A stretch of 64,000 bases of DNA, from positions 2,296,001 to 2,360,000 of the forward strand of contig NC_087251.1 of the NCBI RefSeq assembly GCF_037042905.1. Direction: 5' to 3'. This document shows, piece after piece, positions 27,101 through 63,900 of the stretch; the first letter of the stretch is position 1; each line of letters begins with the position of its first letter. Position numbers and translations under genes: made by a program. Source of the DNA: Lytechinus pictus (lineage: Eukaryota). The notes beneath the pieces are model-generated. The model was not told where the DNA came from and did no database searches. It worked only from the letters and a program-made list of their open reading frames with translations.

Positions 27101-29295
27101 TTGGGGTGACAATTGACAAGAATCTCACATTTCAACAGCATGTTAAGAATATTTGTAAGTCTGCCTCCTTTGGTATTTTTAAGATTGGAAAAATGAGGAG
27201 GCTACTCGACCAACCCACAACTGCTAAACTTACCCATGCTTTTGTATCTTCCCACATTGATTACTGCAATTCTGCTCTTTCTGGTATCCCACTGTCACAT
27301 TTACGCCCACTTCAAAGAATTCAAAATAGTGCTGCAAGGCTTGTTACTCTTTCAAGAAAATCTGAACATGTTACACCTATTCTGAAATCACTTCATTGGC
27401 TTCCAATACGCCAACGCATCATTTTCAAAGTTCTTCACATGACGTATAAAATAATCAATGGCCTAGCTCCTGAATACCTCTCTAATCTCATTTCTCTCCG
27501 CTCTTCTAGCTCACTCAGACCACTTCGTTCTTCAACAACCTTGCAGCTTACTTTAGGACCACGTACAAATACCAGTTATGGGGATCGAGCCTTTTCCGTT
27601 TTCGCTCCAATCCAGTGGAATAAATTACCATCTTACATCCATAATGCCAACTCCCTTGATCAATTTAAGACCTTGCTAAAGACCCACCTTTTTAATGTAT
27701 AGGTATCAGTTGTGGGTTGGTCTATATTGAGGTGCACATCTTAGTTGCATTTGTTTGTTTAAAATTTTGCTTTGAATATATCAAGTTTTTTTTTTTTTTT
27801 TTTTTTTTTCCCGGTAATTTAGTTGATAGGCAGAAAACTGAGCGCTTAGAAACACCTGTATTAAGCGCCCTACAAATGTTATAATTATTATTATTATTAT
27901 TAATAACACTTCATATCCACTTCCTCTCTGGAACAGTTTAATGGCCAGCTGGATAGGATACCACTGCACAATGGAAAAAGTTTTTTTTTTTAACTTGCAC
28001 AGGGAGCATTTTTACTTTATTCATGTACATCTGTAACTTCATTTTACCAAGGATCAACAATGTAGCATGGCATCCTATTTTTGTCTAGTACTACACAACA
28101 TTACAAAATGCTCCACCAAGAGGATGTACTACACCTGGAAGAAATAGAAGTAATTGTTTCATTATCATAGGTTTGAGACCACATTATGTAGGATCACAAG
28201 TGAATGTGTTATGTATGGAACCAAGGGTGTGTTCAATGTCGGTTTCCAAATTTGAACGGCAACATGGATCATGAATGACAACATGATTACAAAACGCAGA
28301 TATAATGAGAAACAAAGGGTGTCCACTATTCCTGGTCGTAAAAGTAAACGTCTTTCAAATCACAATTCGGAGGAAAATTTAAACGTCGAAAAAGATGTGT
28401 TTGTAAATGCAATCAACTCAAATTTAAGACCTTGAGCATCGCGAATGCAACATTGAACACAATTGCGTTTTGAAATGTCTTTAAGTTTTCTCTCACGGTG
28501 CAAGCCTACACAAACAGGTGCCAGAACTAACATTTCTTGTGCTTTGTCAAACTGAGCACTAAAGCTGCGCTAACGAAAGCGGGAAATCTAAAGACGATCG
28601 ACATATAAACGTCTTTATATTTTCGACACTGAGCGGTGCACCGCTGGTCGTGTTTGTGTTCAGTGTTTTGGAATTTATTTTTCAATCATGATTCATGTTG
28701 CTGTTTAAATTTGAAAATCAACATTGAACACACCCCAAGATGGAAATTAGTGGAAACCTTGTTTGTGTAAGAGGGGTTGACGTAACAGGCCAAAATATGT
28801 AAATATTGGAAATTGAGCAAGCTAGCATGAACTACTTAGCTTCTTCAGCAGTTCATGTCTTTTTCAATATTTTTTTTTAGTAATGATTTTCTTAATTGAT
28901 TGGTTTATCCTTTATCTACAGATTACAGAACCATTTAAGCCACCTGATGCTCTGAAACCTACAGAGATACCCAAACCCAATGAGACTCCTAAGAAAGTTG
29001 AGCCATTGAAGCCCAGTGTCCTTAGCACCCCTAAGACCCTACCCCTAGAGCTGCCCCCCAATGGGGGAGGGGGTACTCTACCAGCGGAACCTCCACATGT
29101 GACCATTGATCCTTCTCCTTTGAGTCCTGATCAGGATGAGAAGGCTAAGATGGAACAGACAGAGGAAGAGGTGCTACGATGTTTCGTGCTGATGCTGGAT
29201 CTTCTGATTATGCAGGTGAGATTCTATTCAGTGATTAGATGGTGTAATGATGGAAAGGATAATGATGATGATGATGATGGTGATGATGGTGATGG

Positions 29296-29329
<34 letters not shown>

Positions 29330-29330
29330 A

Positions 29331-29363
<33 letters not shown>

Positions 29364-32300
29364 GTGATGATGATGGTGGTGATGGTGTTGTTGATGATGA
29401 AAATAGTGATTTTTGGAAATTAGTACTTAGCATATTAATGAATGAGACTGTTCATGATGATGACAGCAATAATTATGCTGATGATGATTATGCCATTTTC
29501 AATGCAATTCTAAAGTTTAATTTTTTTGTGACTGGCTGAATTTTTCCTAAATTGTATATATGTGAAAGATCAATGTTCTTTTATAAGAAAATGTGATTTT
29601 CCTTTTTATATTTCAGTGCATGTTTGCAGTCGTTAGACAGTTGTTCATCAAGATGAAATGAGCACTCCTCTCCAATATGTGTCTTGTTCTGTCTTCTATA
29701 GTGGTATGCATGATGGTCTTGCATGGTTAATGTTTACTGCATGTATATTACACTTTTAATTTAATATTGTAAGACTTATGATCATATTTAGACAATTTAA
29801 TTTGAAGAGATCAGTCCATTTTTTTTTCTTTTTTGAAAGAAGTATTAAAGTGAGAACTATTGGTAACAAAAATAATGTTATAATACAACCAAGGATTGTT
29901 AAGCGATAATCGTTCAAACACAATAGAATTCTCGGACATGGCAAATGCTCACTTTTCTCTTGATTTAGTTTACATGAAGTCTTGTGACTTGTCACATAAT
30001 AAAATTCCCATGCAGTCTTTCTATTAAAACCCATGAGAATTCATTTTATGGTACATTTATAATTGAGATCATTGAGATACCTATAATTGTATTTTAATTG
30101 ATTATTTCGAAACTAGTCCAGTTTCCAAAAAAAAAAAAAAAAACATTACAACTATTTTTTATATAACATATTTCAATTTTTTGTGTCACCAGATTCCCAT
30201 TATAAAATAGAATCTTTAAAGGATACTTGTATTTGGTAGTACGATTCACAGTTCATTCTTCGTGTTTCGCTTGTAGAGTAGACTAGAATTACTTCTACTG
30301 AGTAATCTTTGAGTATTTGGGTTATGTTTTGATTCTGTTTTGATTTCTGTTTAAAAAAATTTGTTTTACTTTATCTCATCATTTGTGTAAAAAATGTTTG
30401 CACTGTTGTTTTTTTCATATATATTGCTCTCTACAAAAGTAGAAATTTGCACTTCAATCTTATATATAACCATTGCTGCACACTAGAGAAAAATGTTAAT
30501 ATTACACCTTTAATATGCTAAACTCAAAGTGAAAGTGAAAGTCATGAATGTGTGCTCTGTTCTTTGAATATATTTGCTTTGTGGTATGATATTTTGTATC
30601 AGCTCCTACTTCATTTGAATCAATTTGTTATTTGACTTTCACAGAGTGATCTTCAGTACCTACCATTCCATCAAGGTTTAGAACATAGCCAATCAAAAGA
30701 CTTTGTAGCTCTGTTAACCACCATGCTACAAACACCATGGGTAACAGAGAATATGTTTGAAACCAATTCAGCTGAAGGAAAGGAGAAGAAAGAGGAGAAG
30801 CAGAAAGCTGCAGAAGCCAAACATGAGTCAGATAGCGCCAATGCTGGAAAGTACAGGAAGAAGTCTATTGGTCATAAGTGTACAGCTAATTATGAAGTGA
30901 GAACTTGTAACATCATTATTTTATTAATTTGAGTTATATTGAGCTCTTCATTGTAAAAGCTTAATTTCATATTTTAATTGGACTTTATTTGAAAGTATAA
31001 TTTTTTTTCAGTAAGGTGAGTTCACATGTCACATCTTTTTTTTTAACCCACCACCCTGCGAGCAAAAAGATTATTGCGTATTATAAAAGCTACGTACAAG
31101 CAGGAGAGGAAGCACTTTATCCATAGGAACAATAAGAATTGATTATTATACAAGTAAAAAAGAGGGATAAAAAAGTAGGAATTGCATCGAATATATCAAA
31201 GTTTTATTGACCCTACCCGAAGCCCATTTTTGTTCATACCCCAAAATCTGATACAAGATGGTTTTATAGCTAATACAAATTATCAGTCTAATCACTACCA
31301 CATCACTTCATGAAACCGGTTCCCTTCTATTCCTATCACCAGGCAATGGGAACCAATGGTGTTAAGATGATGTCATGTAGTCTATGTGAGCTCTGGGCAC
31401 TGTGGTTTCAACTATCTCTCAAGCTCCTTGAAAGAATCGCTCCTGGTGGTGAGACTAAGGTCTGTGACATGCCTGATGTGTCGGAGTATCAGTTTGAAAA
31501 GAGTCTGGAGGAAGCCCTTACAATCTGTAAAACCAATGATGTCAAGAGCAAGAAGAACAAGAGTATAATGGATAGAGGGATGAGCAAACATAAGAGGATA
31601 ACTAAGGTGAGTGTTGGGTTGTATGCTTGTGATCGCAACTTTAAAAACTTTAAAGAATTCTGGAATTGTTTGTTAAAGCTTTTCTCTCTTTTGTGTGTCA
31701 TATTTTATATGTCCAAACTATTCTCTTTTGCCTAGGAGATCATTAGAATTTGGCACTGTCATTCTTTGTAGCTCAGTTCCAATAAAAAAAAACTTCAGAG
31801 GCATGTTGCAGAAAATATTAGTTTTAATCACAACTCAAAAAAAATTATCACAAGATTAAAAAATGTGTGCTTTTAATTTGGTAAGAATCAAGTTGTGTTT
31901 GATTTCAATGCTTTTTGTAATTGGCCCCTGACAAACATCAAATTTTATTTTTTAACATTATAATGTTTGAACATACTTTCTCAATCTAGCATCATTCATT
32001 GTTACTTAGCATTTGTCTCACACTTAGTGTTTTGTAACAGCTATAGATTAGAAAACATCAATTCAGGCCCATTATTGATTTGCCTTTCATCCAGCAGCAA
32101 AACAAAATCATAGAAAAAAGAATGGGAAAAAAGATATCACACTTTCCCAATTGGGCACTGAACCAATGCTCTACCAACTGAGCTATCCCGGCTCCTGTTA
32201 CGGCAGTATAGTATTTTATATATGCAAAAAAGAGCACATCAAGTCGCATTGATTCTATTTCATAGACTTGCAGATCCATACTATTTTTGTAGTTTTTGTT

Positions 32301-35300: not shown

Positions 35301-38300
35301 AGGGAGGAATTAATTGTTGTTTCACTTGACAATGAGGAGAAAATTAGAATATTTCATATGATAAAATACAAAAGAAATAGTGAGTGGATGACGTCATCAG
35401 TCTCCTCATTTGCATATCGACCAGGATGTGCATATAACCGTTTTGTGAAATTAAACGAAACTTGAAAATGTCATAACTTTCTTATTTTACATCCAATTTT
35501 GATGAAATTTTCACTGTTATGCATGTTGGAATTTTTTTTTTCTATTCAAATCAATTTTTTGTTGGGGTGGACTTGTCCTATAAGCAAATTTTATCAATTA
35601 CAATATTTCCTTAATAAAGACAACTTTAAAGATGCAATGTATTGTCTAGATTTACCATTATCATCACCACCACCACCATAATTATCATCGCCATCATTAT
35701 CATCGCCATCATTATCGCCATCATCATTATCATCGTCAGATGTCATCATCATCACCATTATCATCATCATCACCACCATCATCATCACCATCATCTCCAC
35801 CATCACCATCATCTCCACCATCACCGTCATCATCACCATCATCATTGTCATCATCATCACCATCATCTTCACCATTATCATCATCATCATTACCATTATC
35901 ACCATCATCACCACCATCATCATTAACGTCATTCAATTCAATTCAATTCAAATAAACATTTATTTTCTTCCATTTCAAAACACTTTTCATAAACATTAGT
36001 TCATACAAAAATCAAATTGTTATGAGGAATATAAATATGTACATGTTTGGTATAAAGAAGAAGGCGTATACCCTAAAAGCCGAGGCTTGTGACGGGATAC
36101 GCCTATAGACAGAAATACAATACAAAAGAAAGGGCAGAGAAAAGGAGAGAAGGAAATGGAACGAGAGAGGGAGACGTGAGCGGGAGGCGGGCATGAATTA
36201 CTGTATAAAATAGAATGCTCAACAAATGTATCAGTGGGGGCAAAAATATAAATGCCGCAAGAACAATTGTCCATGGTTCATGTTAACTTAAAGTCAAAAG
36301 GAAACGTAAGTTGAAAAATATTCATATATAAAATGACAGAAGAAGTTTTTTCATTTTATACTTAAAGCTACATGACGATAGAGATTGTTTTATGTAATCC
36401 GGTATTTCGTTCCATATTTTGGGGCCAGTATAACGAATGTTGTGTTGAAAGATTATTTTTCTATGTTTGGGAATGAATATTTGATTATTTGAGCGGGTAT
36501 CAAAATTATGTATGTTGGAAACATGCGTAAACAAATCACGAAATTTGTGTGGAATTTGAGAATTTAAACACCTGTAGAGAAACTGACATCATCAGAGAAA
36601 CTGTCATCATCATTGCCATCACTATCGTCATCTTCACCATTGTCATCATCATCACCACCACCATCATCATCATTGCATTCATGCAACCTATAGTCTCATA
36701 TGAATCACTTAAGGATTTTTTTTTTACTTTAAGATAATACATGAAAATTGTTTCTATCAAAATCCAAATAAACCCATAGTATCTGTAGTCTAATTACATG
36801 TACTCTAAAATCTGATCTCATTCTCCCTTGATGAATCAGAATCAGTCCTTGTGTTTTATAATATAAAATGATTCAGAGTAGTTAGAGTATATAAACCAAC
36901 CAGACACAAATTTGAAGTGGCCATTGTTTCACACAAGTTATCAGCAATGACAATCTTCACAATATTTTTCAATGACATTCTTGTTTTGATTCAAGTTCAA
37001 GTTTATTTAAACCAATCAAAACAAGAGACATATTACACAGTTTAACAAAAAAATGAGCATACATGATAGGTTTGGGACCACATAGAAGCAGAGCTTGTGA
37101 GAGGGGCCCCTTATACAAAACATTACAGCAAGAATGAGACGAAAAATATATACAATAATAATCTAGAGAGTAAATAAAATACATACAAAAATACACACAC
37201 ATACGCACACGTATGGTTTATCAAGATTCAATTTAAGATATTTTGTAATCTTTCAAATAAATATTTTCGACATGAATTTTTAAATATGGGCAGTGTTGGA
37301 CTGGATCTAAAGCTTTGTGGTAACTTATTCCATTCTTTGATACAAACTATCACAAAAGAATTCAAAGCGGTATTTGTTCTTGCAAGTGGTTGGTGGATAA
37401 GATTTTTCTGCCGTGTATTGTACAAATGGACATTCGAGTTAACAACAAATGCATCTTTTAAAAATGAACAGTTTTGAGAGGATTGTGATTTGTACATAAA
37501 TATCAAACAGTTGAAGGAGACTAAATCATCAAGAGGCAAAATCTTCAATTGCAGAAATAAAGGAATACTTGGACATCTGTAATTCGAATATGTTATGAGC
37601 CTCATAACTTTCTTCTGAAGAATTAGCAGTTTGTTTAAATGGTTCCTATATGTATTTCCCCATGCAACATTACAATAATTTAAGTGTGGCATAATGATAG
37701 CATTGTAAAGAGTTACTAAGGTCTGCTGTGGTAGAGAGCAACATATCTTATAAATGACACCAACACACCTTGATACCTTAGTACAAACATAATTGAGGTG
37801 ATTTTTCCATGATAAGTGATCATCAACTACAACTCCCAAAAACCTTACATCTTGACTTCGATTGATCTGATGACCTCCTATTGATAATGTATCAATATCA
37901 TCAGGGATTCTTTTACCCCTTGTTCTAAAGACAACATATTGAGTTTTACTAGCATTTAATAAAAGCATGTTACTGCAAAACCATTAAAATATATTTCTAA
38001 TTTCATTGTTAGTTGAGAATATAAGAGTATGCATATCTTTGTGATGGGAAAGTTAGCAAGTATCATCTGCGAATAGTGAATAAGTAAACAATTTTGATGA
38101 ATTTATAATGTCATTAATATAAATCAAGAACAATAATGGACCCAGAAGCGTTATCACTGTGGTAGATATAAGTGATAAATATCATGTTAGTGATTATAGC
38201 CTTCATAAAATGATGACTTTATCATATTAACATGATATTTGAACATTATTTAGTTATAAAATGTTATGCCATTAATCCTCGTTTAGAACAAGACTGATTC

Positions 38301-40028
38301 TACAGCCCAGGGTCTATTAGCTGCTACTGAGGTTAGACATGAGGTATTGAAAGCTGAAACAGTTCAAGCCTTCTCAGCTGTATCTAATCTCAAAGCAGAG
38401 AAAGAGAGAGCAGCTAAGAAACCAGGAGGACTCAAACCACAAAAAGGTACAAAAGTAGTCGCACATTTTTGTCCTTTTATTTTCCCTTTTTCTTTCTTTG
38501 TCTTTTTTATTACTGTTTTTCTTTTTCTTTTGCACTTCTTTTGCTGTTATTATTCCTGGTCTTCTTCTGCTGCTTTTTTGTACTGATTCTTTTTCTTTGA
38601 CTTCTTCTTAAAATTTATTACTTCTTTTCTTGTTATACTCCTATTTTTTCTTCTCTCTCTTCTATTTCTTTTCCTCTGTATATCCTCTCCTCTTTTTATT
38701 CTGATCATTATTTTTCTTGTGTTTCTCATTTCTGTTCTGCATCATTTTAGCCATTTTTGTTTGTTTCATGAAAGCTTTCATATATTTCTTTCAGTTGTTA
38801 TTCAAAATCACTTATGTTTATTCAAAAAAAAATTCAAATGTGTAAAATCTTTATATCTTAATTTGAATTGTGTAAAGGAGACAAAGGAAAGCCTGGTAAG
38901 AAAGATCAAGATAAGTCTACATGGCATACAGGACATGGTGATTTTACCATCAAACTAGAAGAGCTTCCAAGATCACTTCAACTTCTCTTCATGTTACTCC
39001 AGGTAAATAAACCACCCAAACAGGTAGTCCAGATTAGATTACTCAAAACTAAATATTAGAGTGTTGTCTAACATAGCAACACTCTATTCATCCAAACTGG
39101 ATCCAAAAACCAAGCCTCATTGATAATATAAAACGTACAACTAGAAAACTTTGACTCTTGGTACTGAATCATTTAAAAAAAAGGAAAGTAAACATTCTTG
39201 TCATTAGATCCAAACATTGAATAAGATAGACACCAGATTGAAGAAATAACAATACCAATGTTGATAATGAGGAGGAACCATCTTAACAAAAAATGATTAG
39301 ACCTGTTTTCGATGTGTTATTCATTCATGGTGTCACAAAGTTATTGTCTCCCTTTGGCCCTGCTTAAAAAAAATTGAAAATTATAAATCAACGTGTGTGA
39401 CAAAAAATAACATACAGATATATTAAAACTTGATCAAATATTAATATTTTAGTAAAGGCAATTATTTTAAGAATGAAATGTGTCACTATGCATCCTTTTG
39501 GTTTTTGATATTTATCAAAGTGAATTTCTGATTAATTTTCAGGAGGTATCTAAGCATCCAGACCCTAATGTTTTGTTGAATCTGCTGAACTGTGTCAAAG
39601 TGCTGTGTTTGAATGCAGAATGCCTTAGACAAGCTGCTAAGGATCAAGTAGGATTCCTGGTCTATGCACAAGAGAATTTACTCATTCCAAGGTATTTACC
39701 AATTTAACTCTTTCATTTCCATTGTCTTTGATAATAAAGAGATCATTTACATGATTACATCATGAGATGACAGGAAGGTATTTGTTTCTTTTATTTCTTT
39801 TGAGATTGATGAATTCTCTTTGATAACCTGATAATATCTCCAATGTTATATTCTTTCTTTTCAACTCTTTAATTAGATCTGTGACATTTTCTGAGGTAAT
39901 TAAGCCTTGCAGTATTCTCAATTTCACTTTTGTCTCATAGCAGTGCTGCTACTAATGATAGGGATAATGAAATGACGATTATGATCATTAGAATGGTGGT
40001 GGTGGTGATGATGATGATGATTTTGATT

Positions 40029-40060
<32 letters not shown>

Positions 40061-40109
40061 GATGGTGATGATGAAGATGATGATGATTATGATGAAGATG
40101 AAGATGGTT

Positions 40110-40162
<53 letters not shown>

Positions 40163-43100
40163 CGTTGGGATGATAATAATTGTAATAATGAAAACATATC
40201 ATACCAATTTGATTTCAGTTTCTGGAACCTGTTAGAAGGAGAGTTATCTCATGTTGTTGAGCTCTTAGTGCCTCTGATCCTCCATTGTTTTGCCCTTCCT
40301 TGTGGAGCTGATGTGATGTGGAGATTAGTTGATAATGAGGTGGAAAGTGAAAGCTGGCAGACTAGATTCAGGGCAGGTAAGTGCCTCTATCATAATAAGG
40401 CAAGCATTTTTTCATCACTCGTTTCATTATTTTACAATGTTTTAAAGCTTCAATCAGTCACTGAACTACATACATTCATTGATATTTTGTTTATGCTCAC
40501 ATATATTAAGCTTTGTTTATTTATAGTATTTTTTAAATTGGTTAAAAGTTATAAGTGAACACTAGAAAGCCATTTATTATCTCTTGTTTTTGTTAAGGTG
40601 CTATGACAGACATAACAACCATAGAGACTAATACTTTATAATTGCATGATGCTTGCCCAAGGAGTTATCTTCAGTAAGGTTCTACAAAAACGAGAGACTT
40701 GTAACTTGAATTTTACTTAGGTGGAAATGAAATTTCCTTCAGAAGAAAATCTTAGATCGTTTCATCCAAGCATGATTATTTTTCAGTTCTAATGTGTATG
40801 ACATTGTTTTATTTGTCTTTGCTTGTTTGTATCGACAGCTGAGAGAGTGACAGTGATGCTGAGATGTGTAGAGAAGAAATCTCTTGGAAACAACACTGTT
40901 ATTATGGGATCTCTTGCCCATGCCTTCAGTTCATTAGTGGTTGCTACAGAAGATATCTGTCCTGCTGTATCAGCTAGGGCTATACTTATGCTTGAGAGTA
41001 TTCCAATGAAAGTCATCAAGGTAACCATCATATAGGATCATATTCTGAACTCAGGGTTTATGTCATTTCTGGTCTGAAGTTGTGGATCAACTTTGAAAAG
41101 CCAATTTTAACACAAATCTTTTTACAGTAAAGGTTCAGTTTATCAGATCATATGGCACCCATATCATTGATTACTGTCTGTGAATAATAAGTAAAACAGT
41201 TTATGTTATCCTTAAAGTATGGAAATAACACAGTTAGCATAAGAAGCATGTAATAAATCAAAAATTTTGACGGTTTCGGTATCTCATAATTTTAGTACTT
41301 TGGGATTTAACCAGCTGGTATTAAATAACTTTAAACTGTTCAAGCTGAGGTGATAATTAACAAAGATATGTGTTATTACAAATGCAGGAACTAGACCAAT
41401 AGTTGTCGTTCCTAGTAGACCTTTCCATAGAGGTGAAAGGTGGATGTGATCATTGATCATTAATAAAGCATGTAGTGGCAAAAGTGAATAGTTTGATGAA
41501 AAGAGAAATACTTCAGTAATTATGAAATCACTTTCCCTCACCAATCAATATTTCATAGTAAGATATATTCTTCCTTCATACCACTTATTGATGAACTCCT
41601 TTCTCTATATTTTAACTATGATCAGGTATTGGTAGGTTGTCTTGAGTTTCAATGGGACTCAGTCCTTGAGGATCGCGTGTTGATTCTATCTAAGCTACGT
41701 CTACTACATCACTTCATGCCAGTAGCTCCCGTACTCTCTTGGGAATTCTTTATGAATCGTCTTGATACTCTAGCTCTTGAAGCACAGGTGGACATGGAAC
41801 AAAACAAGGAGTTTCCATTCCCTATGGGTAAGTTGCTACTTAAGATTGCTACCTTTCAAACCCTTGACTACCTCTATCCTTTATTCACCCAGTCTTTATC
41901 TGCCCAATTCTCCTGTCATCTGTTTCTCCTGCAGTTCCCTATTTTCTTTACTTCTCTCTTAATACCCTTTATTGTTGTTGCCCTCTCTCTCACTTTCATC
42001 CCCTCCCCTCCCCATTTTCTCTCCACTTTTCTCCACTTTTCTTCTCTCTTTTTTCCTCTTATTCATTCTTTCCATTCCTTTTTTGTTAACATTGGTTGCT
42101 TTTCTCTCCTGAAGTATACATTTCAAAATCTTAAAATCAATCCTTTTTTAATGCATAACAACCTCAAAGACGTTCATTATTCTCTCAATCTAAATGCACA
42201 ATCTGTAGAAGATATCTCACAGGATGAGACATTTCATTTCCCAACAAATCCATGTTCATATTATCTTCCTGATGATTTTTGTAATAAATATAATAACTCT
42301 GACGATAGACTATCTCTATTACACTTAAATGCAAGGAGTCTCTGCTCAAATTTTAGTAAACTTGAGGAGTTACTGACTTCCCTTGATTTTTCGTTTTCTG
42401 TGATAGGAATATCAGAAACATGGCTGAATTCTTTCATGTTAACGTCTATTTATAATATATCTAATTACTCATTTGTTCACACATGTCGAGATTCCAAGAC
42501 TGGTGGGGGTGTTGCCTTGTATATTTCCGAAAACGTTGAATTCCTTGAAAGACCAGATCTGACTGTAAATAATTTATTTCTTCAAACTGTTTTTATTGAA
42601 ATTGTCAATGTTAACTCTAAGAATATAATTGTTGGGAATGTCTATAGACCTCCCAATACAGAAATTGACTTGTTTTTACATGATATGGATTCTCTGCTTT
42701 CTAAAATACACAATGAAAAAAAAATACTATACTTAATGGGAGATTACAATATCAATTTGTTAAATACTGATAGACACACTAAAAGCAAAGAGTTTGCTGA
42801 TAATATGTTCTCATACAATTTATTCCCAGTAATCACCAAGCCTACACGCATATCATATAAATCTGCTACTATAATAGATAATATTTTTACAAATGCAATC
42901 CAATTTGAATATGATAGTGGGCTACTATATTCTGACATTTCAGATCATTTCCCAATATTTTATGTTGCAAAAAAGTTTAATAATATTTCGATTTCAAGGG
43001 AACCCCGCCTGAAGAGAATGATAAATGATGATGGGATCGATTGCTTAAAAAAGAAATTGAGCTGTCTAGACTGGAAACCAATCTATGCATCCAACGATGT

Positions 43101-46100
43101 CAACCATGCCTATGATCTGTTTTACTCAATTTTTTATGATGCTTATAATGAATGTCTTCCTACTGTTAACAGTAAAAAAAAAAACACACGATTTCACAAA
43201 CCTTGGATTTCTTCTGGCATCTTGAAATCTATAAACAAAAAAAATATCCTATATAAAAATTTTCACAGATACTCTGGACCAGAAAAGATTAAAAAAAGGA
43301 AAGAAGAAAAATACAAAAGCTATAAAAACTGTTTGGTAAAAGTAATTCGGTTTGCAAAAAGAGAATATTATAATAAAAAATTTAACACCTTAAGAGGTAA
43401 CATGAAGAAAACATGGCAAGAAATTAATAACATATTGGGGAAAAAAGCTCAAATTTCTCTACCAACCAAAATGTTTTACAATAATGAATCTTTTGATACC
43501 AATCAAATGAAATCTAATTATTTCAACAGATATTTTGCAAATTTGGGCAAAAATCTTGCTCAAGTCATCCCTGACCCCCACACAGAGTTCATGTCTTTTT
43601 TAGGAGACAACAATATTCATTCAATGTTTTTTAAACCAACCAATATAAATGAAATACTAAAGATCTGCTCCTCCTTGAAATCAACGTTTTCCTGTGGCTC
43701 TGATGATATTATCCCATCTATTGTGAAAAAATGTATTTATCAATGTGTCCATCCACTGTGCCATATATATAATATGTCTCTTGAATATGGTGAAGTTCCT
43801 AATGCATTTAAAATAGCTAAAATTGTTCCAATTTTCAAAAAGGGTGATCGTAAAGACATTGTTAACTATAGACCAATTTCTGTTTTACCCATCTTTTCAA
43901 AGATACTAGAAAAAATTGTTTTTGAACGTTTGTACAGCTTTTTGAATCATAACAATATATTAATCTCACAACAATTTGGTTTTCGTAAAAGATATTCAAC
44001 ATACATGCCAATATTTCACATGTATGATCGTATAATGCAAGAAATAGATAAGGGTAATCTCACCATTGGTATATTTTTGGATCTCTCGAAAGCATTTGAC
44101 ACCGTTGACCATGACATACTTCTTAAAAAAATGAAACATTATGGGATAAGAGGTCTCGCTCTTGATTGGTTTGATAATTATTTATCAAATCGCATGCAGT
44201 ATGTTGTGGTCAACGGTGTCAAGTCAACTTTCAGTCATGTATCACACGGCGTTCCGCAAGGGTCTGTCCTCGGCCCCTTGCTTTTCCTTTTGTATATCAA
44301 TGACCTTGTAAATTGTTCCTCAATTCTTAATTTCATACTCTTTGCTGATGATACCAGTATTACTCTTTCTCAAAAAAATATTATTCCTCTCATTAACACC
44401 ATAAACATTGAACTTCGTGAAGTCGTTGTCTGGCTTCAATGCAATAAACTTTCACTGAACCTTGAAAAAACTAAATTTGTACTATTTAAAACACAAACTA
44501 AAAAAATTGGTAATGATTTTCCTCCAGTTATTATGGATGGCAAGATTATTTCCCAGGTATCAAATATAAATTTTTTAGGTATCAAGATCAATGAATTTCT
44601 ATCCTGGAAACCTCATATTGATGAATTATGCACTCGTTTATCAAAAAGTACTGGTGTCCTCCGCAAACTGAAGTTTATTTTACCCAGACATGTATTAATT
44701 TCACTTTATAATACTTTGGTTTTACCCCATCTCACTTATTGCTGTATGCTATGGGGGAATGGATTCAAAACACATTTACATAGATTATTTCTTATTCAAA
44801 AAAGGTTAATCAGAACAGTTTGTAATGCACATTTCAATAGTCACACAAACAAGTTATTTCTTGATTGTAAAATATTGAAAATTTCTGACTTGGTTCTTAT
44901 GTATACTTATATATTTATGTACAATTACCATTCAAATCTCTTGCCAAATATTTTTGATAATCTCTTCAACACAAATGCCTCTTTCCATTCATACTTTACG
45001 CGTCATTCAGCAGATCTTCACCAATATCTTCCAAAAACTAAAATTACCCAAAATTCTCTACGTTGTAGAGGAATTAAGCTGTGGAATGATTTAAATAATG
45101 ATATTAAACAAAGTAAAACCATAAATAAGTTTAAAATACTCTTGAAAGTTGAATTTTTTGCTCAGTATAAAAACTCCTGCCAATAGCACACTGTAGGTCA
45201 CTATTATTTATAATTATTACTTCTAGTTTGCTTGTTTGTTTATTTCCCCTATGTTAGCCCATTGTTTTTTGTTTTTTTTTTAATTGTATTTCAATGTTAT
45301 TTGTTGTTCACTCTTTATGTACATGTATGTATTATATTAATTTGTATTTGATTGTACCATGGTTGTGCCCCACTCACAAGTTTTTTTTAATGAAAACTTC
45401 TAGGGGCTCCCAATCCCATGTTTTTACCTAATTTGTATATACCTGTATTTTTATGATTGATTGATTGAAATAAATTTTGAATTGAATTGAATTTTTTTTT
45501 AATTTTAATTTTGATAAGTTTTTTTTATTCAAACAAAATAATTTGTAGCACACAAAAAAATTAACTTACCTCATATTTTTTCACATCCACTTGCTAGACA
45601 CGAGTCGTTCCAGTGCTGGCCTTGGTGACCGAACAGACATCTTCATGAACAAGCTGAACCGAGCTCGATTAGCTCGCTCCCAGTCTGAGCTTTCAGGAAC
45701 CCTGAAGCCTCGTCGTCTGTCTGCGGCTTTCAGTAAACAGGATAGCAAGGCTAGGAGCAAGTCTATGCCCACCGGTATCGGCTTTGCCCGCTTCAATTTC
45801 CCACCGTGTGAGTAAATAATAATGAAACACAATGGTGTATAATGCATTATACTTCACATCATATAATGTCCCTCTGATTCATTTAATTGAACAGAATGAA
45901 TTGAAGAAAATGTTACTTTTTAATGTAGTTACAAACTTCAAAATGATCTGATATATATTCTTGATATATTTTGGCGAGAGAAGTGGCTGCCTTTGTCTAT
46001 GAAAGTGGAGTCGTTGTATCACATTTGATTATTTTTATAATAATGATAATAATATGTCCATTTATATAGCACAGTAACTATGTGCATATACTCAACTGCG

Positions 46101-49100
46101 CTTTGATACTTAATATCATATTATTACCCCGGCTATAGATTGAATAGATAGAATGGGCATATGCTAATGTTCCCAAGGCAATGATGATTTCATACAAACA
46201 TCTGTAGACCTAATCATATTAAAAATAATAGTTACATTTATATAGTGCTTAATGCACTTTGTTTTGAAGTGTAGCTGTCATGTCCATGAAACCAACTCTT
46301 CCCTGCCCAGTATCGTCAATTCAAAACCAGGCACTACTTTTAATCCATATGTAGTCAGTCAGAAGGAAAAATATAAATTTCCTTCAGGTAGATAAAAAAA
46401 TAAATAAAAGGGACATAGTTCAATGACATGCTTAGTAAATTTTTTGCTTTAGAAATTTAATTCATCATTCTCTTTTCTCTTAGCTGATCGATCAACATAC
46501 AGCAGGCCAGCTAACTGCAGAGGAGATAATTTTCTGGTTGGAGATGGGTTGCTGGTGAATAGCTTGTTCCATGGTGAGTTGGGTATTTTGTACATTAATA
46601 TAAAATAATGAACTTGTTCCGGCTTTTTGACGAGTAGTAACATTAGCTTTAGTTGAAGCAATTATAATACAGCACTCGATTCTTCAAGGAATGAATCCTA
46701 CTAGGTACACCTGAGTCTGGTGTGGTATGTGTGGCTGTGATCAGACTTGAACCCCTGACTTTATGGTTCACACTCCAAGTCTTGTCCACAGATTCATAAT
46801 GCCTATATTCTTTTAAGCCATTGAGTCTATTGAATACTATGCCTAAGATATATCAAACTAGGGTTTGTGGAAAATGTGTACCATACTGAAATTAAATCAT
46901 GTTAAATATGTTAACCAAGAAGGAGATAAATTTTACACTTTTACACTTTGCCTGATATCATTAGTATCTATTACAAATGTTTCATCATACCAATATAAAT
47001 CATATCATTTCTTTCAGCCCTTTAAAAGAAATCTAGAATACCCTTCTATTGTAGGCGAATTGATCTCTACTACTTTTGTTTTGTAATGTAGTAGATGTCA
47101 TACAATATTATTATTTGTTAGAAATGAAAACTTAAATAATTTTTTTTTTCACAATTTATATTAAAATAGAGTGATGTTTTCATTCCATGATTATTCCAGG
47201 TAATGAATGATTGGAGTTTAACATCAAGCATGTTTATCATAATAATATATTTGATTGTTTTTGGTTTAGATGGTCACCTAAAAGGAATAAAAGAAGAGCT
47301 GAAAGAAGAGATACCAACTTTCAATATTGATCTGACTAATGCTGATAAACAGACTGTACATAAGCTTATTACACTCCTCATGATAGTGAGTATTAACATG
47401 TGTATCATCTTGAAATAATCAAAATCTATGTATTATATGAGTGTGAGAGTTCAGCTATTTAACTGATTTCAGCTATTTGGATTTTTCAGCTTTTAGTGTA
47501 CTTTGTCTGTATAACAATATATGAGCTTGAACAATTTTAGCTATTTTCATCTGTGCCTTTGTATGGTAATAAAATATTACAAGTGTAATCAATAGGTGTA
47601 AACAAAAATGATAATGATTTGGCCATAAGTAGTACCTTTTGACATGAGTGCTTGGATTTAGAACTGAATTTCTCTTGAAAAAGCCATGGAAAACATTTGA
47701 TAGTTTTCAATGCTATGGATTGGTGATATATAGAAGTAGATATAGTGGCTCATATTTTTAATAAGACAATATTTGTATGTTATATCTTCAGTTCATGACA
47801 GGGCCAACCAGTATGGATGATGATCAAGTTTCAGGAAGAGCTATGGTAAGTTGATGTCTGAATAAAAACTTGATTTTTCTATTCTCTACTCTCCTTGGTC
47901 ACCAGAAATATATAAAACATTGTTTGCTTATGCATCATATAAAAAGTCAGAATATTATATATGTACACTATCTATCTATAGCTTTGCTTTGAAAGATATC
48001 TTCATACATATATATGCAGTTTTGTTCTGAAGCTTAAGATTATCCCATTACCCTGAAGATGACCAAAGTAAATTAATTTCTTTGATGTTGCAGAATACTG
48101 TATTACGTCACCTGACAGTGTTGCTAGGTTACAACCAAGTTAGTAAGACCTTCAACCTTCCACCCCATCAACTGAGAGAATCAGCAGTCTTCTATGCATT
48201 CATGGCAGGATTACCAAAGGTTAGTATTGACAAGAAAAAAACAAGTGGAGAGGTGAATTGCCATTGATTGCAATTTCTCTCCCTCACCAAACTTTATTAT
48301 GCTTAAATATCATAAGATGCGAGAAGTATGAAGGAAAACAAAAAAAAAAGAACAATATTTAAACAATGTCTTACAAAACATAACAAAATATTATAACAAA
48401 TGTATGCATTTCAACCGGTAATTTATAAAGCTTACTTACAGTCACATGGCTACCATTTGTTGCATTCAGGAAAGAGCTAATGTAAAAAATACAACTAAAT
48501 GCATCAGACAGAAATTAAGCTTGACCAAGCTTGACCTACCCAAATGTTCTCACCTTCTGTAATATTAGTACTGCCACAGATACTACCTCCAGTATTTGTA
48601 CTATCCTTAGTGTTAAGTGTTATAGATGGCTGTGTATAACACTTCCATACTATAAAATGTGCTTCTTCATTTAACCTTGATTGGAAACCCATTTTTTATA
48701 CCAAGCATAATTAAATGGAATCCAATTATCAGGTGCTGTCCAGGCTTCTTTCATCATTGATTATAATATTCTCTCAACTCTCAGATGCTGGATCACAATG
48801 TAAAGGTTGGAAACATGGTATTACCTATGGTATTGAGTCTCCTACAGTACTGCCCTTCACCACAGAAATCATCTCAGGACTCACACCCTCCAGACTACAC
48901 TCTATGGTTCCTTGAACCTCACTGCAGACACTCCTGGTTTATGTCTCTACTCATTGTACTCTACAAGGTAAGTCTTTAGAAGAAACCTTAAAACTCACAC
49001 CCTATGGTTCCTTGAACCTCACTGCAGACACTCCTGGTTTATGTCTCTACTCATTGTACTCTACAAGGTAAGTCTTTAGAAGAAACCTTAAAACTCACAC

Positions 49101-52100
49101 CCTATGGTTCCTTGAACCTCACTGCAGACACTCCTGGTTTATGTCTCTACTTATTGTACTCTACAAGGTAAGTCTTTAGAAGAAACATTGAAACTCACAC
49201 CCTATGGTTCCTTGAACCTCACTGCAGACACTCCTGGTTTATGTCTCTACTCATTGTACTCTACAAGGTAAGTCTTTAGAAGAAACCTTAAAACTCACAT
49301 CCTATGGTTCCTTGAACCTCACTGCAGACACTCCTGGTTTATGTCTCTACTCATTGTACTCTACAAGGTAAGTCTTTAGAAGAAACCTTAAAACTCACAC
49401 CCTATGGTTCCTTGAACCTCACTGCAGACACTCCTGGTTTATGTCTCTACTCATTGTACTCTACAAGGTAAGTCTTTAGAAGAAACCTTAAAACTCACAC
49501 CCTATGGTTCCTTGAACCTCACTGCAGACACTCCTGGTTTATGTCTCTACTCATTGTACTCTACAAGGTAAGTCTTTAGAAGAAACCTTAAAACTCACAC
49601 CCTATGGTTTCTTGAACCTCACTGCAGACACTCCTGGTTTATGTCTCTACTCATTGTACTCTACAAGGTAAGTCTTTAGAAGAAACCTTAAAACTCACAC
49701 CCTATGGTTCCTTGAACCTCACTGCAGACACTCCTGGTTTATGTCTCTACTCATTGTACTCTACAAGGTAAGTCTTTAGAAGAAACCTTAAAACTCACAC
49801 CCTATGGTTCCCTGAACCTCACTGCAGACACTCCTGGTTTATGTCTCTACTCATTGTACTCTACAAGGTAAGTCTTTAGAAGAAACCTTAAAACTCACAC
49901 CCTATGGTTCCTTGAACCTCACTGCAGACACTCCTGGTTTATGTCTCTACTCATTGTACTCTACAAGGTAAGTCTTTAGAAGAAACATTGAAACTCACAC
50001 CCTATGGTTCCTTGAACCTCACTGCAGACACTCCTGGTTTATGTCTCTACTCATTGTACTCTACAAGGTAAGTCTTTAGAAGAAACATTGAAACTCACAC
50101 CCTATGGTTCCTTGAACCTCACTGCAGACACTCCTGGTTTATGTCTCTACTCATTGTACTCTACAAGGTAAGTCTTTAGAAGAAACCTTAAAACTCACAC
50201 CCTATGGTTCCCTGAACCTCACTGCAGACACTCCTGGTTTATGTCTCTACTCATTGTACTCTACAAGGTAAGTCTTTAGAAGAAACCTTAAAACTCACAC
50301 CATATGGTTCCCTGAACCTCACTGCAGACACTCCTGGTTTATGTCTCTACTCATTGTACTCTACAAGGTAAGTCTTTAGAAGAAACCTTAAAACTCACAC
50401 CATATGGTTCCCTGAACCTCACTGCAGACACTCCTGGTTTATGTCTCTACTCATTGTACTCTACAAGGTAAGTCTTTAGAAGAAACATTGAAACTCACAC
50501 CCTATGGTTCCTTGAACCTCACTGCAGACACTCCTGGTTTATGTCTCTACTCATTGTACTCTACAAGGTAAGTCTTTAGAAGAAACCTTAAAACTCACAC
50601 CCTATGGTTCCTTGAACCTCACTGCAGACACTCCTGGTTTATGTCTCTACTCATTGTACTCTACAAGGTAAGTCTTTAGAAGAAACCTTAAAACTCACAC
50701 CCTATGGTTCCTTGAACCTCACTGCAGACACTCCTGGTTTATGTCTCTACTCATTGTACTCTACAAGGTAAGTCTTTTGAAGAAACCTTAAAACTCACAC
50801 CATATGGTTCCCTGAACCTCACTGCAGACACTCCTGGTTTATGTCTCTACTCATTGTACTCTACAAGGTAAGTCTTTAGAAGAAACCTTAAAACTCACAC
50901 CATATGGTTCCCTGAACCTCACTGCAGACACTCCTGGTTTATGTCTCTACTCATTGTACTCTACAAGGTAAGTCTTTAGAAGAAACATTGAAACTCACAC
51001 CCTATGGTTCCTTGAACCTCACTGCAGACACTCCTGGTTTATGTCTCTACTCATTGTACTCTACAAGGTAAGTCTTTAGAAGAAACCTTAAAACTCACAC
51101 CCTATGGTTCCTTGAACCTCACTGCAGACACTCCTGGTTTATGTCTCTACTCATTGTACTCTACAAGGTAAGTCTTTAGAAGAAACATTGAAACTCACAC
51201 CCTATGGTTCCTTGAACCTCACTGCAGACACTCCTGGTTTATGTCTCTACTCATTGTACTCTACAAGGTAAGTCTTTAGAAGAAACATTGAAACTCACAC
51301 CCTATGGTTCCTTGAACCTCACTGCAGACACTCCTGGATTATGTCTCTACTCATTGTACTCTACAAGGTAAGTCTTTAGAAGAAACATTGAAACTCACAC
51401 CCTATGGTTCCTTGAACCTCACTGCAGACACTCCTGGTTTATGTCTCTACTCATTGTACTCTACAAGGTAAGTCTTTAGAAGAAACATTGAAACTCACAC
51501 CCTATGGTTCCTTGAACCTCACTGCAGATACTCCTGGTTTATGTCTCTACTTATTGTACTCTACAAGGTAAGTCTTTTGAAGAAACCTTGAAACTCACAC
51601 CCTATGGTTCCTTGAACCTCACTGCAGACACTCCTGGTTTATGTCTCTACTTATTGTACTCTACAAGGTAAGTCTTTAGAAGAAACCTTAAAACTCACAC
51701 CCTATGGTTCCTTGAACCTCACTGCAGACATTCCTGGTTTATGTCTCTACTTATTGTACTCTACAAGGTAGGTCTTTAGAAGAAACCTTAAAACTCACAC
51801 CCTATGGTTCCTTGAACCTCACTGCAGACACTCCTGGTTTATGTCTCTACTCATTGTACTCTACAAGGTAAGTCTTTAGAAGAAACATTGAAACTCACAC
51901 CCTATGGTTCCTTGAACCTCACTGCAGACACTCCTGGTTTATGTCTCTACTCATTGTACTCTACAAAGTAAGTCTTTAGAAGAAACCTTAAAACTCACAC
52001 CCTATGGTTCCTTGAACCTCACTGCAGACACTCCTGGTTTACATGTATGTCTCTACTTATTGTACTCTACAAGGTAAGTCTTTTGAAGAAACCTTAAAAC

Positions 52101-55100
52101 TCACACCCTATGGTTCCTTGAACCTCACTGCAGACACTCCTGGTTTATGTCTCTACTTATTGTACTCTACAAGGTAAGTCTTTAGAAGAAACCTTGAAAC
52201 CCACACCCTATGGTTCCTTGAACCTCACTGCAGACACTCCTGGTTTATGTCTCTACTTATTGTACTCTACAAGGTAAGTCTTTTGAAGAAACCTTAAAAC
52301 TCACACCCTATGGTTCCTTGAACCTCACTGCAGACACTCCTGGTTTACATGTATGTCTCTACTTATTGTACTCTACAAGGTAAGTCTTTAGAAGAAACCT
52401 TAAAACTCACACCCTATGGTTCCTTGAACCACACTGCAAACGCTCCTGGTTTATGTCTCTACTCATTGTACTCTACAAGGTAAGTCTTTAGAAGAAACCT
52501 TGAAACTCACACCCTATGGTTCCTTGAACCTCACTGCAGACACTCCTGGTTTATGTCTCTACTCATTGTACTCTACAAGGTAAGTCTTTAGAAGAAACCT
52601 TGAAACTCACACCCTATGGTTCCTTGAACCTCACTGCAGACACTCCTGGTTTATGTCTCTACTTATTGTACTCTACAAGGTAAGTCTTTAGAAGAAACCT
52701 TGAAACTCACACCCTATGGTTCCTTGAACCTCACTGCAGACACTCCTGGTTTATGTCTCTACTCATTGTACTCTACAAGGTAAGTCTTTAGAAGAAACCT
52801 TGAAACTCACACCCTATGGTTCCTTGAACCTCACTGCAGACACTCCTGGTTTATGTCTCTACTTATTGTACTCTACAAGGTAAGTCTTTAGAAGAAACCT
52901 TAAAACTCACACCCTATGGTTCCTTGAACCTCACTGCAGACACTCCTGGTTTATGTCTCTACTCATTGTACTCTACAAGGTAAGTCTTTTGAAGAAACCT
53001 TGAAACTCACACCCTATGGTTCCTTGAACCTCACTGCAGACACTCCTGGTTTATGTCTCTACTCATTGTACTCTACAAGGTAAGTCTTTAGAAGAAACCT
53101 TGAAACTCACACCCTATGGTTCCTTGAACCTCACTGCAGACACTCCTGGTTTATGTCTCTACTTATTGTACTCTACAAGGTAAGTCTTTTGAAGAAACCT
53201 TAAAACTCACATCCTATGGTTCCTTGAACCCCACTGCAGACACACTTGCACACCAGTATATAATTTTGATTACAATAAAAGATTTCATTATTGTGATATC
53301 TTTAGATGATCTCTCTATAAGCATGTTAAACTTATTTATTGGTATGGTATCGAAGTACTTAAGTAATCCTTGATCTGATATGGCAAGTAAGAATTTACAA
53401 TTAAGTAATACGGAGATCAAATAGTAGTATAACCTATTAATGATTCAAATCTTTAGAACTTGTATGAACTTATATAACCATTGGTTTTCCCTGCTTATTT
53501 TCTTAGTATTCCATAGACCAAGCTGAATTGAAGACCACACTGAAGGCTTTAGTGCGTATCACTATGAATGTATTAGAATCACAGCGTCATATCTGTAAAC
53601 CAAAGAGACCAGAACCACCACAACCAGAGGATATCTGGGGTGCTACCTTGCCCAACAAAAACAAATCAGGTATCAGATTGCCTATGATGATGGAATGAAA
53701 GAATGAAGTGTTGTCAGTAAAGTCATTCACATGGGATTACCTGTGAAGAAAATGTTGACCAATTCTTTGTGCAGCCACCAATAAAACTGTTAATACATTT
53801 CCCAATTTTTCTACACAGTCTATAATTCTCTGCAGTACAAGGTGACTTTTTTCATAAATCTGTAAAGAAAAATCTCAATTTTTTTAAAGAGAATTCTGGT
53901 TTAGCAAAATATATAATTTTGATGAATATTCTAACACACTTAGTAAACGTTTCTAGATTAAACTGATTTAGACTCAAGACTTTGCACTGAGTATTATGAA
54001 ATTTAAAGCTGGTGGGTGATTTTGGAAAGGTGATGTGGCAACCCATGAAATAATGGTAATTTCATGAATTATTGAAAAACAATGAAACAACACCTGCATA
54101 CATGTGTTAAAAATGTACTGTAAAGAAAAGAGCATGAGTAAAACTACATATATGAAGAATTTAGTTGCAAAAGGGGTTAGGTCCACTTTGGACCATTCCG
54201 AGAAAAACCATGTTTTTTTATTCTCAGTTATTGCAATATTCTTATGAGAAACTAAATTGTCATGATGTACTACCCTATCATGTGAACATAAAATTGGGTA
54301 TAAAAGAAATCTACCTGTCTTCAATTTTTTTTTCTATATATTCTTTTAAAAATTATTATTGTGGACCTAACCCCTTTTTGCAAGCAAACTGAAATGAATC
54401 CAATCTATTTTGATGAAAAATAAAGATTTTTCTTTGCCACTTTTATTAACGTTTTCATGTGAATTTCAAATTTTCTTTGTTTTCATCTGAGCGACTAAAA
54501 ATTTAGAGGTTTTGAGACAGAAAACAATAAAATTTATGAACAATGGACCTAACCCCTTTTGACAAATAAACACTTCAGAAGAGTTTGTTTGCAAAAGGGG
54601 TTAGGTCCACTCCAAGAAAATCATTTTTTTTCTTCCCATATTGCAATATTCTTATGCGAAACTAAATTTTCATGATATCCTACCATGAGAACATGAAATC
54701 GGGTATTAAAAAAATCTACCCGTCTTCATATTATTTAAAATATTCTTTTCCAAAAAAATTATGTGTGGACCTAACCCCTTTTGCAACCAAACTGAAAAGG
54801 ACCTAACCCCTTTTGAAAAAAAAAAGATATTTATTTGCCATTTTAGATCACTTTTTAATGGGAATTTCAACTTTTCTTTGGTATCATCTTATAGAGCTAC
54901 TAAAAATCTATACATTGAGAAAAAAAAATCAAATTTGATGAAAAATGGACCTAACCCCTTTTGCAAGTGAGCTCTTCATATCGTGCTTCATGCCATTCAT
55001 CAATACAAAGTAAGCCAGAGCCAGTAGTGGTGACAGTGATTGAACAGGGAAATGGTTAAAGGAGAATGAAACTCTTGGAGCAAGTTAGCTTTTGTGAAAG

Positions 55101-62389: not shown

Positions 62390-63900
62390 ATTAATTTATT
62401 TCCAATTCATTAAAAATACAAGTTGACATCATGATCATGTACAAACAAAGAGACAATAAAAATTAAAACATATCATTGAAACATAAATAAATACAGACGA
62501 AAGTGATAATCAAAGTATTATTGCCAAATCATTGAAACAATATAAAAACAAGACGAGAGATAAATGAATGGGAAACAGGAGTGTACTAAAAAGCCAGGAG
62601 AAGGCTTGTTAAAACGCACACACCCAAAATAAATAAATTCTTAAAATAATTGTAATATATGGATGCGGCAAGTAGCAAAAGAACAAAAACAAATAAAACA
62701 AAAACATCAACATAAAAACATCAACAACAAGACATATAAAGCAAGTCTAATGGAAATTATAGTACGATGAGGATCTTAGTAACTTTGGATCAGTTTATTT
62801 TTATATTGCTTTTTAAAAATATTATGAAAGGTAATATTAAATTGTTCAAGATTCAGACTATTCCATATTGTGGGACCAGTGTGACGCAGTGAAAATTTAG
62901 ATAAGTCATTCTTGTAATTCCATCTGTGAAGTTTTCGTGAAGACCTTGTATAGTGATTATGTATATTACAATTGAAAGAAAACATATTCATTAATTGAGG
63001 AGAAAGGGTTCCAGTATGATACCGCTGCATTAAAGAAGCAATCTGTAGTTTATTAATATCTTGTAATTTAAGGGTTCTTAACAACTTAAATAGTTTCGAA
63101 GTAGGTGCTCTATAATCTGATCCCATACAAATACGTATAGCTTTTTTCTGTAATAAAAACAGTTTGTGTAGATGGCAAGAATATGTATTTCCCCATATTG
63201 AGTTACAATAGGTCAAATGTGATAAAATGAAAGCGTTAAAAAGAGTAAATAAAATGTTTTTTGGCAAGTCATATTTGAGTCGATTTAGAACTCCAATAAA
63301 ACGAGAAACCTTATTACAAATAAAATTAATGTGAACATCCCAACAGAGTGTGTTACTCAATATAACACCTAGAAATTGCACAGAGTCATAGAATTGGAGA
63401 CGGGTTCCGTCTATCTTTAAAACAATGTTGGAAGTATTATATTCACTTCGTGAATTGAAGTGTATCAGACTGAATTTTTTAGCCATCAAATTACCTACTA
63501 ATTCATTAAATTTTGAAGATAAATAGTATTTAGATGGTTCAGATGTATAGAGACCATCATCTTATTCGATATTTTCTAATATGTTGTCTTCAGAAATCGT
63601 AGATTTATGAACGTTTGTAATTTCATCTTGAGAGTGAAAGGTAGATAAAAACAAGGCCTCGAAATCAGTGTCGTCTAATTCGTAGAAGGGTAGAAAATGA
63701 GAAAAATTTGGTTCTTCGTTCGAATCTGAACAAGAGATATAGTTTAAGTCCTCAGTAGGAGTCAGATCAGTAATTACAGTGTTATTTTTTGACATTACGA
63801 ATACAACAAAAACAAAACAGGGCAAAACAAAAATCAAATTGAACAACAACAAAAAATCGAATCAAATATCAAATATTGTAAAATTGAAATGAGAATATGA
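62390..63900 (-). mobile_element. Internally deleted LINE lacking most of EN and the RT core
   Basis: EPSKYYL...FSLIHFNSRS (EN start) joined directly to post-RT FLGV...YCNSIWG...GPTIWN; AATAAA/A-rich tail; 5' boundary approximate. Confidence 0.8.

Follow-up and report, generated by a model that had tools for sequence, protein, structure and literature searches.

The window analysed here is the whole 64,000-nucleotide (nt) stretch of Lytechinus pictus contig NC_087251.1, and it contains the host gene unc-79. The RefSeq L. pictus protein P0011 was placed on it by an exact-match walk as 40 exons, and the 27th of these (41626-41827) opens a reading frame that continues without a stop across its own 5' splice site, through the first part of intron 27 and into the endonuclease and reverse transcriptase (EN-RT) of a long interspersed nuclear element (LINE) lodged in that intron. 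An earlier note on this DNA, made from the letters alone, had proposed that retention of the intron would yield a chimera of UNC-79 and EN-RT. Four of 23 sequencing runs were compared with the window: X1 (contigs), X9 (DNA of a second organism, here organism B), and X21 and X22 (raw RNA, sampled at ~6 in 100). The features on which the argument turns are the following.

41626-41827, plus strand: unc-79 coding exon 27, amino acids (aa) ~1267-1333 of P0011; the acceptor AG ends at 41625.
41828-41833, plus strand: 5' splice site GTAAGT, consensus, phase 1.
41828-42121, plus strand: linker, the 5' part of host intron 27; 294 nt, 98 codons, stop-free in the exon frame.
42122-45494, plus strand: 5'-truncated LINE copy, 3373 nt of a ~6.8-kb element; the 5' region, open reading frame (ORF) 1, the spacer and the first 65 codons of ORF2 are missing.
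42207-42209, plus strand: candidate cryptic acceptor in frame (phase 1), the only one among the five YAG sites that precede the endonuclease; its pyrimidine tract is weak (50%).
42283-42288, plus strand: first internal AATAAA, a candidate premature poly(A) site, before the endonuclease.
42319-42954, plus strand: APE-type endonuclease domain (Pfam PF03372 and PF14529), with LHLNARSL, ISETW, VYRPP, GDYNIN, IDNIF and SDHFP present.
43846-44589, plus strand: reverse transcriptase domain (Pfam PF00078, RVT_1, E=6e-35).
45184-45186, plus strand: ORF2 stop codon.
45469-45494, plus strand: AATAAA of the element, then its short 3' tail of (ATTGA)n type; the host sequence behind it is T-rich, and sisters end alike.
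45495-45597, plus strand: 3' part of host intron 27 with the acceptor AG; stops in all three frames.
45598-45807, plus strand: unc-79 coding exon 28, from the P0011 walk; contig 8 of run X1 lies on 45597-45807 only, at depth 5.9.

Translation of the frame gives 1186 codons without a stop (41626-45183), and its stop-to-stop version begins at 41500. The first 68 aa are UNC-79: they match solved structures of human UNC79 (E=4e-19), their best match is a Lytechinus variegatus protein at 99%, and the residues of exon 27 match UNC-79 proteins of echinoderms and hemichordates (8 matches among 22 candidates). The translation, the structure match and the P0011 walk thus uphold the central observation of the earlier note, a 1186-codon open frame starting in UNC-79 sequence, and GTAAGT begins at 41828, where that note had set the donor. 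The EN-RT that it described is also in place, with SDHFP at 42940, FADD at 44341 and AATAAA at 45469. The predicted fused product (N-terminal half of UNC-79, linker and EN-RT) comes to 2452 aa, close to the ~2450 first estimated. In the annotated protein P0011, exon 27 is spliced to exon 28 at 45598. In-frame retention of the whole ancestral intron 27 was also considered and is excluded, the 3' part of the intron having a stop at 45546 in the frame of exon 28.

The linker is single-copy host intron sequence. Its sole full match in the genome is itself, next to one weak 66-nt match at 78%, in a search that skipped simple sequence, and the DNA of organism B covers it at a depth of ~112. That it might be the 5' end of the element, or an inverted piece of it, was considered and rejected, for the sister copies share unrelated sequence there among themselves, and the linker has no match beyond short words in 30 loci and none in the genome apart from the weak one. 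The linker was given ~107 codons in the earlier note, but the host part amounts to 98, the last codons before the methionine at 42151 already belonging to the LINE; this methionine is internal to the native ORF2. In composition the linker is 46% T and 32% C (78% C+T), with 15% A, and its other two frames hold 6 stops. Its translation is strongly hydrophobic (Kyte-Doolittle maximum 2.39 in a 19-aa window) and has no Pfam match.

What follows the linker is a young, truncated member of a dispersed LINE family. The genome search returned 48 LINE matches, ten of them starting at window position 42122 and one at 42121; most matches end at query 3987-3997, with scattered starts, and upstream of the point equivalent to 42122 the sisters share another sequence with each other. 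Six copies were examined further upstream, and two of them (L033 and L034) agree over ~3.4 kb, which holds an ORF1 of 278 aa, a repetitive spacer of ~1.8 kb and the first part of ORF2, which begins 65 codons ahead of the break and includes a Cys-rich segment. Alignment of other family copies, the route suggested in the earlier note to the true 5' end of the element, hence puts that end ~3.4 kb beyond the break at 42122, and the LINE can no longer be called complete. A Pfam search with ORF1 gave no family and the PDB gave L1 ORF1p only weakly (E=2.5), while the Atlas leads are an 'L1 transposable element-related' cluster (0.92) and a cluster bearing Transposase_22 (0.91). The ORF in the window aligns to human L1 ORF2p (8sxt, E=2e-17). 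It differs from five sisters by 0.36-0.42%, and the changes private to the window copy number 7 in 3373 nt (~0.2%), 4 of them non-synonymous, 2 synonymous and 1 in the 3' untranslated region; set against 2296:619 sites, a 4:2 ratio stems from too few changes to show constraint. Among the five closest sisters the ORF is open to the end in three and broken in two, and 25 of 46 genome matches to the ORF protein are stop-free over at least 979 aa, with 45 of 18,722 candidates scored genome-wide. The intactness of the ORF is accounted for by the youth of the copy, and nothing beyond youth is needed. No target-site duplication was found at the flanks of the window copy beyond a few T's, and the longest flank words shared at two full copies, of 6-7 nt, are not convincing as such. 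These comparisons fix the boundaries of the insertion, its youth and its truncation, as they do the single-copy host origin of the linker. The assembly was also searched for the locus on a second haplotype, without success; the search returned only an old dispersed repeat in intron 26 (41039-41298, ~260 nt, 69-76% identity, in at least 39 other places). As regards the family at large, in the full copies L031-L036 the ~1.8 kb that separates ORF1 from ORF2 is non-coding and internally repeated, and this spacer diverges faster between subfamilies (~80-90%) than ORF2 does (97-98%).

How surprising the open frame is can be gauged from the host sequence itself. The earlier note had presumed that a linker so rich in pyrimidines would be naturally stop-poor, and this is borne out by its composition and by shuffling with the donor kept fixed (10000 shuffles of each type): no stop appears in 892 of the dinucleotide and 1568 of the mononucleotide shuffles (9-16%). 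Phase (1/3) and orientation (1/2) bring the odds to ~1.5-3% for this site. Across unc-79, 2 of 39 introns are open for at least 97 codons, and an open frame extends to 5.6% of intron bases; with phase and orientation included, the yield for intronic insertions truncated within the stop-free lead of an intact ORF2 is ~0.9% in-frame read-throughs, or about one per 100, a rough figure drawn from one gene and 39 introns. The open frame thus exceeds chance modestly, and a genome offers many trials. A second young LINE, in intron 18 of unc-79, serves as an internal control: it lies in sense 44 nt behind the exon 18 donor and shares the frame of that exon, from which stops cut it off. This element (24473-27900, plus strand) belongs to another family, is an intact LINE with an open frame of 1075 codons, is also cut at its 5' end and matches five near-full-length sisters at 98-100%. 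The sequence GDVQLNPGP in its N-terminal part resembles a 2A-like ribosome-skipping motif, with Q where E is usual.

Transcript evidence comes mainly from X1. The kind of this run is not on record, its contigs carry no strand and depth 2 is its floor, but it looks like RNA: exon depth is ~6-7, bins 41120-41509 are at zero and bin 45800-45994 is covered to the extent of its exon share alone (0.24), and the contig on exon 28 lies as a spliced exon would. One of its contigs runs from exon 27 into the LINE:

41798-42178, no strand: X1 read-through contig, 381 nt, depth 2, 0 differences, with 30 nt of exon, the whole linker and 57 nt of LINE.

This contig includes the base private to the window copy at 42148 and ends 30 nt after it. 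By the rule of the tool it bridges the junction of linker and LINE, and at the donor, with 30 exon letters, it is one letter short of doing so. Its start and end would fit a path that forks at the donor in a 31-mer graph and then merges with family RNA. X1 thus comes from a source, perhaps related to the assembled animal, that carries the insertion, and some of its molecules have not been spliced at the exon 27 donor. The earlier note would have abandoned the chimera had intron 27 always been spliced and no transcript ended near 45490; constant splicing is not supported, the X1 contig running from the end of the exon through the linker into the LINE. The contig, strandless and confined to 41798-42178, stops 105 nt short of the first internal AATAAA. 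The runs compared show no transcript that reaches the LINE stop or the signal at 45469. No X1 contig carries the private letters 44419, 44517, 44518 or 45364, a weak negative given that contigs drop rare variants, and neither the exon 27-28 joint nor a splice joint to the cryptic acceptor at 42207-42209 is among the 15 of 19 joints listed. Splicing to that acceptor, judged from its sequence, could bypass the linker, but it is weak. RNA of the LINE family stands in X1 at a depth of ~20-90 from other copies, against 2 at this locus. X21 and X22 are uninformative on splicing, with zero depth on the exon bins 40730-40924, 41510-41899, 45605-45799 and 46385-46579. Almost all their reads on 42095-45604 have the first mate on the plus strand, the pattern of antisense RNA in most stranded libraries, with no host exon reads to calibrate the strand.

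Comparison with other organisms adds a second line of evidence. Searches for a fused protein found none in the longer (8 matches, with only UNC-79 domains), near (0 of 216 candidates) or shorter (3 matches) length classes, and the sequence of the 1186-aa frame is itself absent from the protein collection searched. The matches in the shorter class, three of three among 305 candidates, are predicted proteins from other organisms that continue past exon 27 into intron sequence in the same phase. Their intronic parts are unlike the window linker and run for 25, 30 and 37 residues before ending; we take these ends as stops, the end of a contig being the possible alternative. Stops in the linkers of orthologs were named in the earlier note as evidence that would tell against the fusion, and all three orthologous read-throughs do end within 37 residues. 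A similar fragment occurs elsewhere in the gene, since P0015, a 109-aa predicted protein on 5 Logan contigs from another organism, reads unc-79 exon 18 into its intron; exon-into-intron fragments hence occur outside intron 27 too. For organism B, one contig of 1197 nt, present at single-copy depth, carries 365 letters before 45526 that do not match the LINE tail, roughly the length of the empty intron plus some exon. On the length of this one contig, the site in organism B is probably empty; no empty-site joint stands among the 15 of 19 joints listed, from which tail-repeat joints are dropped.

We consider it probable that the long frame arose by chance, through the in-frame insertion of a young, truncated LINE, and that it is accompanied by some unspliced or prematurely ended RNA, a recognised consequence of LINEs that lie in sense within introns. 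In this account, an active LINE family recently put a 5'-truncated copy, in sense, into the pyrimidine-rich, ~0.4-kb intron 27 of unc-79; to judge from LINE biology, target-primed reverse transcription would have ended early, just inside ORF2. The A-poor intron would have been stop-poor beforehand and the junction would have fallen into the phase of the exon by chance, and because of these two circumstances the long frame would be an accident. Most transcripts presumably splice exon 27 to exon 28 and give normal UNC-79, a dominance suggested by the fact that the annotated protein is spliced and that the spliced-looking contig stands at ~3x depth. A minority would be unspliced at the donor, either as slow-splicing pre-mRNA, the intron being now ~9x longer, or as RNA ended early in the A-rich LINE. 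The LINE holds five A-rich tracts, against 0 and 1 in control introns 26 and 28, and such tracts could capture pre-mRNA on oligo-dT; further candidate premature poly(A) sites lie at AATAAA 43372 and 44443. The unspliced RNA would be mostly degraded or yield no useful protein. Retention of the whole intron puts a stop far upstream of later exon junctions, and nonsense-mediated decay is expected for such RNA. A transcript ending at an internal AATAAA would be devoid of the enzymes, and only one ending near 45490 would encode the chimera. The caveat already voiced in the earlier note, that the fusion may be incidental, is the best-supported reading.

Several observations weigh against this account. 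A given insertion would come to lie in frame in this way in 1-3% of cases, and of the unique intronic stretches X1 covers the linker alone, with 41120-41509 at zero and 45800-45994 at its exon share. A depth of 2 against ~6 on exons could represent a sizeable minority isoform rather than noise, and the AATAAA of the element, with the T-rich host tract behind it, could form a functional last exon and so spare the transcript nonsense-mediated decay. Moreover, the three short ortholog proteins come from more distant organisms, and the closest linker, that of organism B, is not readable for stops, 40 of 734 differences being visible.

An alternative reading would be an accidental alternative last exon, in which the intron is kept, the whole LINE is transcribed, polyadenylation takes place at the LINE signal and an unselected protein of 2452 aa results. 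The frame is continuous, the X1 contig carries a private base, the terminal AATAAA at 45469 has T-rich sequence downstream and the catalytic motifs are intact. Nonetheless, we regard this outcome as unlikely: the contig breaks off after 57 nt of LINE, its 30 exon letters fall one below the bridging rule, a transcript would have to pass three earlier AATAAA sites, the other private letters are missing from X1 contigs (a weak point), and the membrane-like hydrophobic linker would likely misfold or mistarget the protein. The proposal of the earlier note, a chimera through intron retention, thus stands as regards its geometry and the existence of read-through RNA, but is not supported as regards the product, for neither a transcript to the LINE stop or to 45469 nor a fused protein was found in the runs and collections searched. 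That a polyadenylated isoform ending near 45490 gives a stable UNC-79-linker-EN-RT of 2452 aa with active enzymes seems to us distinctly improbable. There is only a slim chance that the unc-79 promoter rescues a copy without a promoter of its own and that an active EN-RT, made as the fusion or from the methionine at 42151, copies itself or other RNAs in neurons. Both enzyme domains and the 3' tail are intact and read-through RNA reaches the LINE, yet ORF1 and the Cys-rich first 65 codons of ORF2 are missing, the family RNA in X1 comes overwhelmingly from other copies by depth, and no daughter copy bearing parts of the linker or the exon is found in the assembly (one full match for the linker and, among the matches scored, no second one for exon 27).

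The opposite extreme, that intron 27 is always spliced and the X1 contig stems from carried-over genomic DNA or antisense transcription, would be compatible with a run whose kind is not on record, with strandless contigs and with a depth at the floor. It is very unlikely, however, for the start of the contig falls exactly 30 nt ahead of the donor, the point at which spliced and unspliced 31-mer paths would be expected to fork, and the neighbouring unique introns are without coverage. Last, selection might be keeping the frame open for a useful UNC-79-EN-RT isoform, a domesticated fusion like ruminant BCNT p97, the precedent for a union of host protein and ORF2 (PMC12129022). The open frame and the read-through contig would suit it, but an insertion only ~0.2% diverged, orthologous introns that close early, a probably empty site in organism B and the lack of any annotated or predicted fusion in the protein searches make it exceedingly improbable.

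Set against known systems, the chance insertion that we favour is largely conventional. With the exception of target-site duplication, the family shows the marks of an APE-type LINE (APE endonuclease motifs, a non-LTR reverse transcriptase with FADD, a shared 3' end with variable 5' truncation and a simple-repeat tail), and the window copy, devoid of the 5' region, ORF1 and the start of ORF2, is not a full-length autonomous element. We presume that it belongs to the CR1 group (L2/Crack/Daphne-type), a label that reflects resemblance in motifs and architecture rather than a tree: the likeness lies in the APE endonuclease and reverse transcriptase of ORF2, the simple-repeat 3' tail, dispersed 5'-truncated copies with no clear target-site duplication and, from the Atlas leads, a putative coiled-coil/RRM-like ORF1 in full copies, whereas the long repetitive spacer of ~1.8 kb between the ORFs is a difference. 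Type II ORF1 is described as Transposase_22-like (PMC4120745) and Crack and Daphne as not monophyletic (PMC13343379).

Human tandem intronic L1s offer the closest parallel to the unspliced RNA. Intron retention was reported in 22 of the 49 genes of that set, together with cryptic polyadenylation (Kaer et al. 2011, PMC3192792), and the effect was attributed to transcriptional interference (PMC3192792). A sense LINE in an intron and unspliced intron RNA from the upstream exon are common to both cases; the human L1s in the figure of that study are full length, while the window copy has lost its 5' end, and in-frame continuity into ORF2 is not described in the results section concerned (PMC3192792). 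As for fusion proteins, ruminant BCNT p97 is a host gene carrying the endonuclease domain of RTE-1, and Lyosin, a union of L1 ORF1p and MYL4, is expressed in four species and subject to purifying selection; ORF2 fusions are called unresolved, with only an endonuclease-domain case named in the passages concerned (PMC12129022). Like these, the window frame joins an N- or C-terminal part of a host protein in frame to a LINE protein. As portrayed there, they are old lineage-wide genes or spliced isoforms, whereas the window copy is very young, reaches the host frame solely by way of a retained intron, spans the entire reverse transcriptase and gives no sign of selection or protein. The conservation expected of domesticated fusions is likewise not seen, with all three orthologous read-throughs ending in 25-37 aa and organism B probably empty. 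A literature search found no work on unc-79, sea urchins and retrotransposons together and, in titles and the openings of abstracts (subscription journals lying outside its scope), none describing the fusion of an entire EN-RT to an exon of the host through a retained intron.

If the insertion is what we believe it to be, the locus holds an ordinary young intronic LINE and provides a worked example, of modest value, of the chance raw material for host-transposon fusions. Were the chimera made, an entire EN-RT would be joined to a host protein, and the locus would test the tolerance of such fusions and the effect of the insertion on UNC-79 output. A stable and active chimera would further place a reverse transcriptase and a nuclease under the promoter of a neuronal channel-complex gene, a whole-ORF2 host fusion caught at birth in a genetically tractable urchin.

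The window contains other repeats of interest. A tandem array of 100-nt units (48900-53250, 44 copies reported, mostly 96-100% alike) is built from the 3' end of unc-79 exon 33, a GTAAGT donor and ~30 nt of intron, with 41 exact exon-end/donor words. The RefSeq protein uses the first (48968) of ~41 identical donors in the array. Splicing from the donor three units further would insert an extra 300 nt, yet a stop codon stands 9 nt beyond that first donor. Two antisense frames on the minus strand (37228-37983 and 62776-63561) are stop-free for 251 and 261 codons, have no Pfam match and resemble, by eye, C-terminal fragments of LINE ORF2. Long simple repeats of GAT/ATC type occupy introns at 29240-29410, 35740-35940 and 39966-40197, and the one that follows exon 19 keeps the frame of that exon open for 107 codons as poly-Asp.

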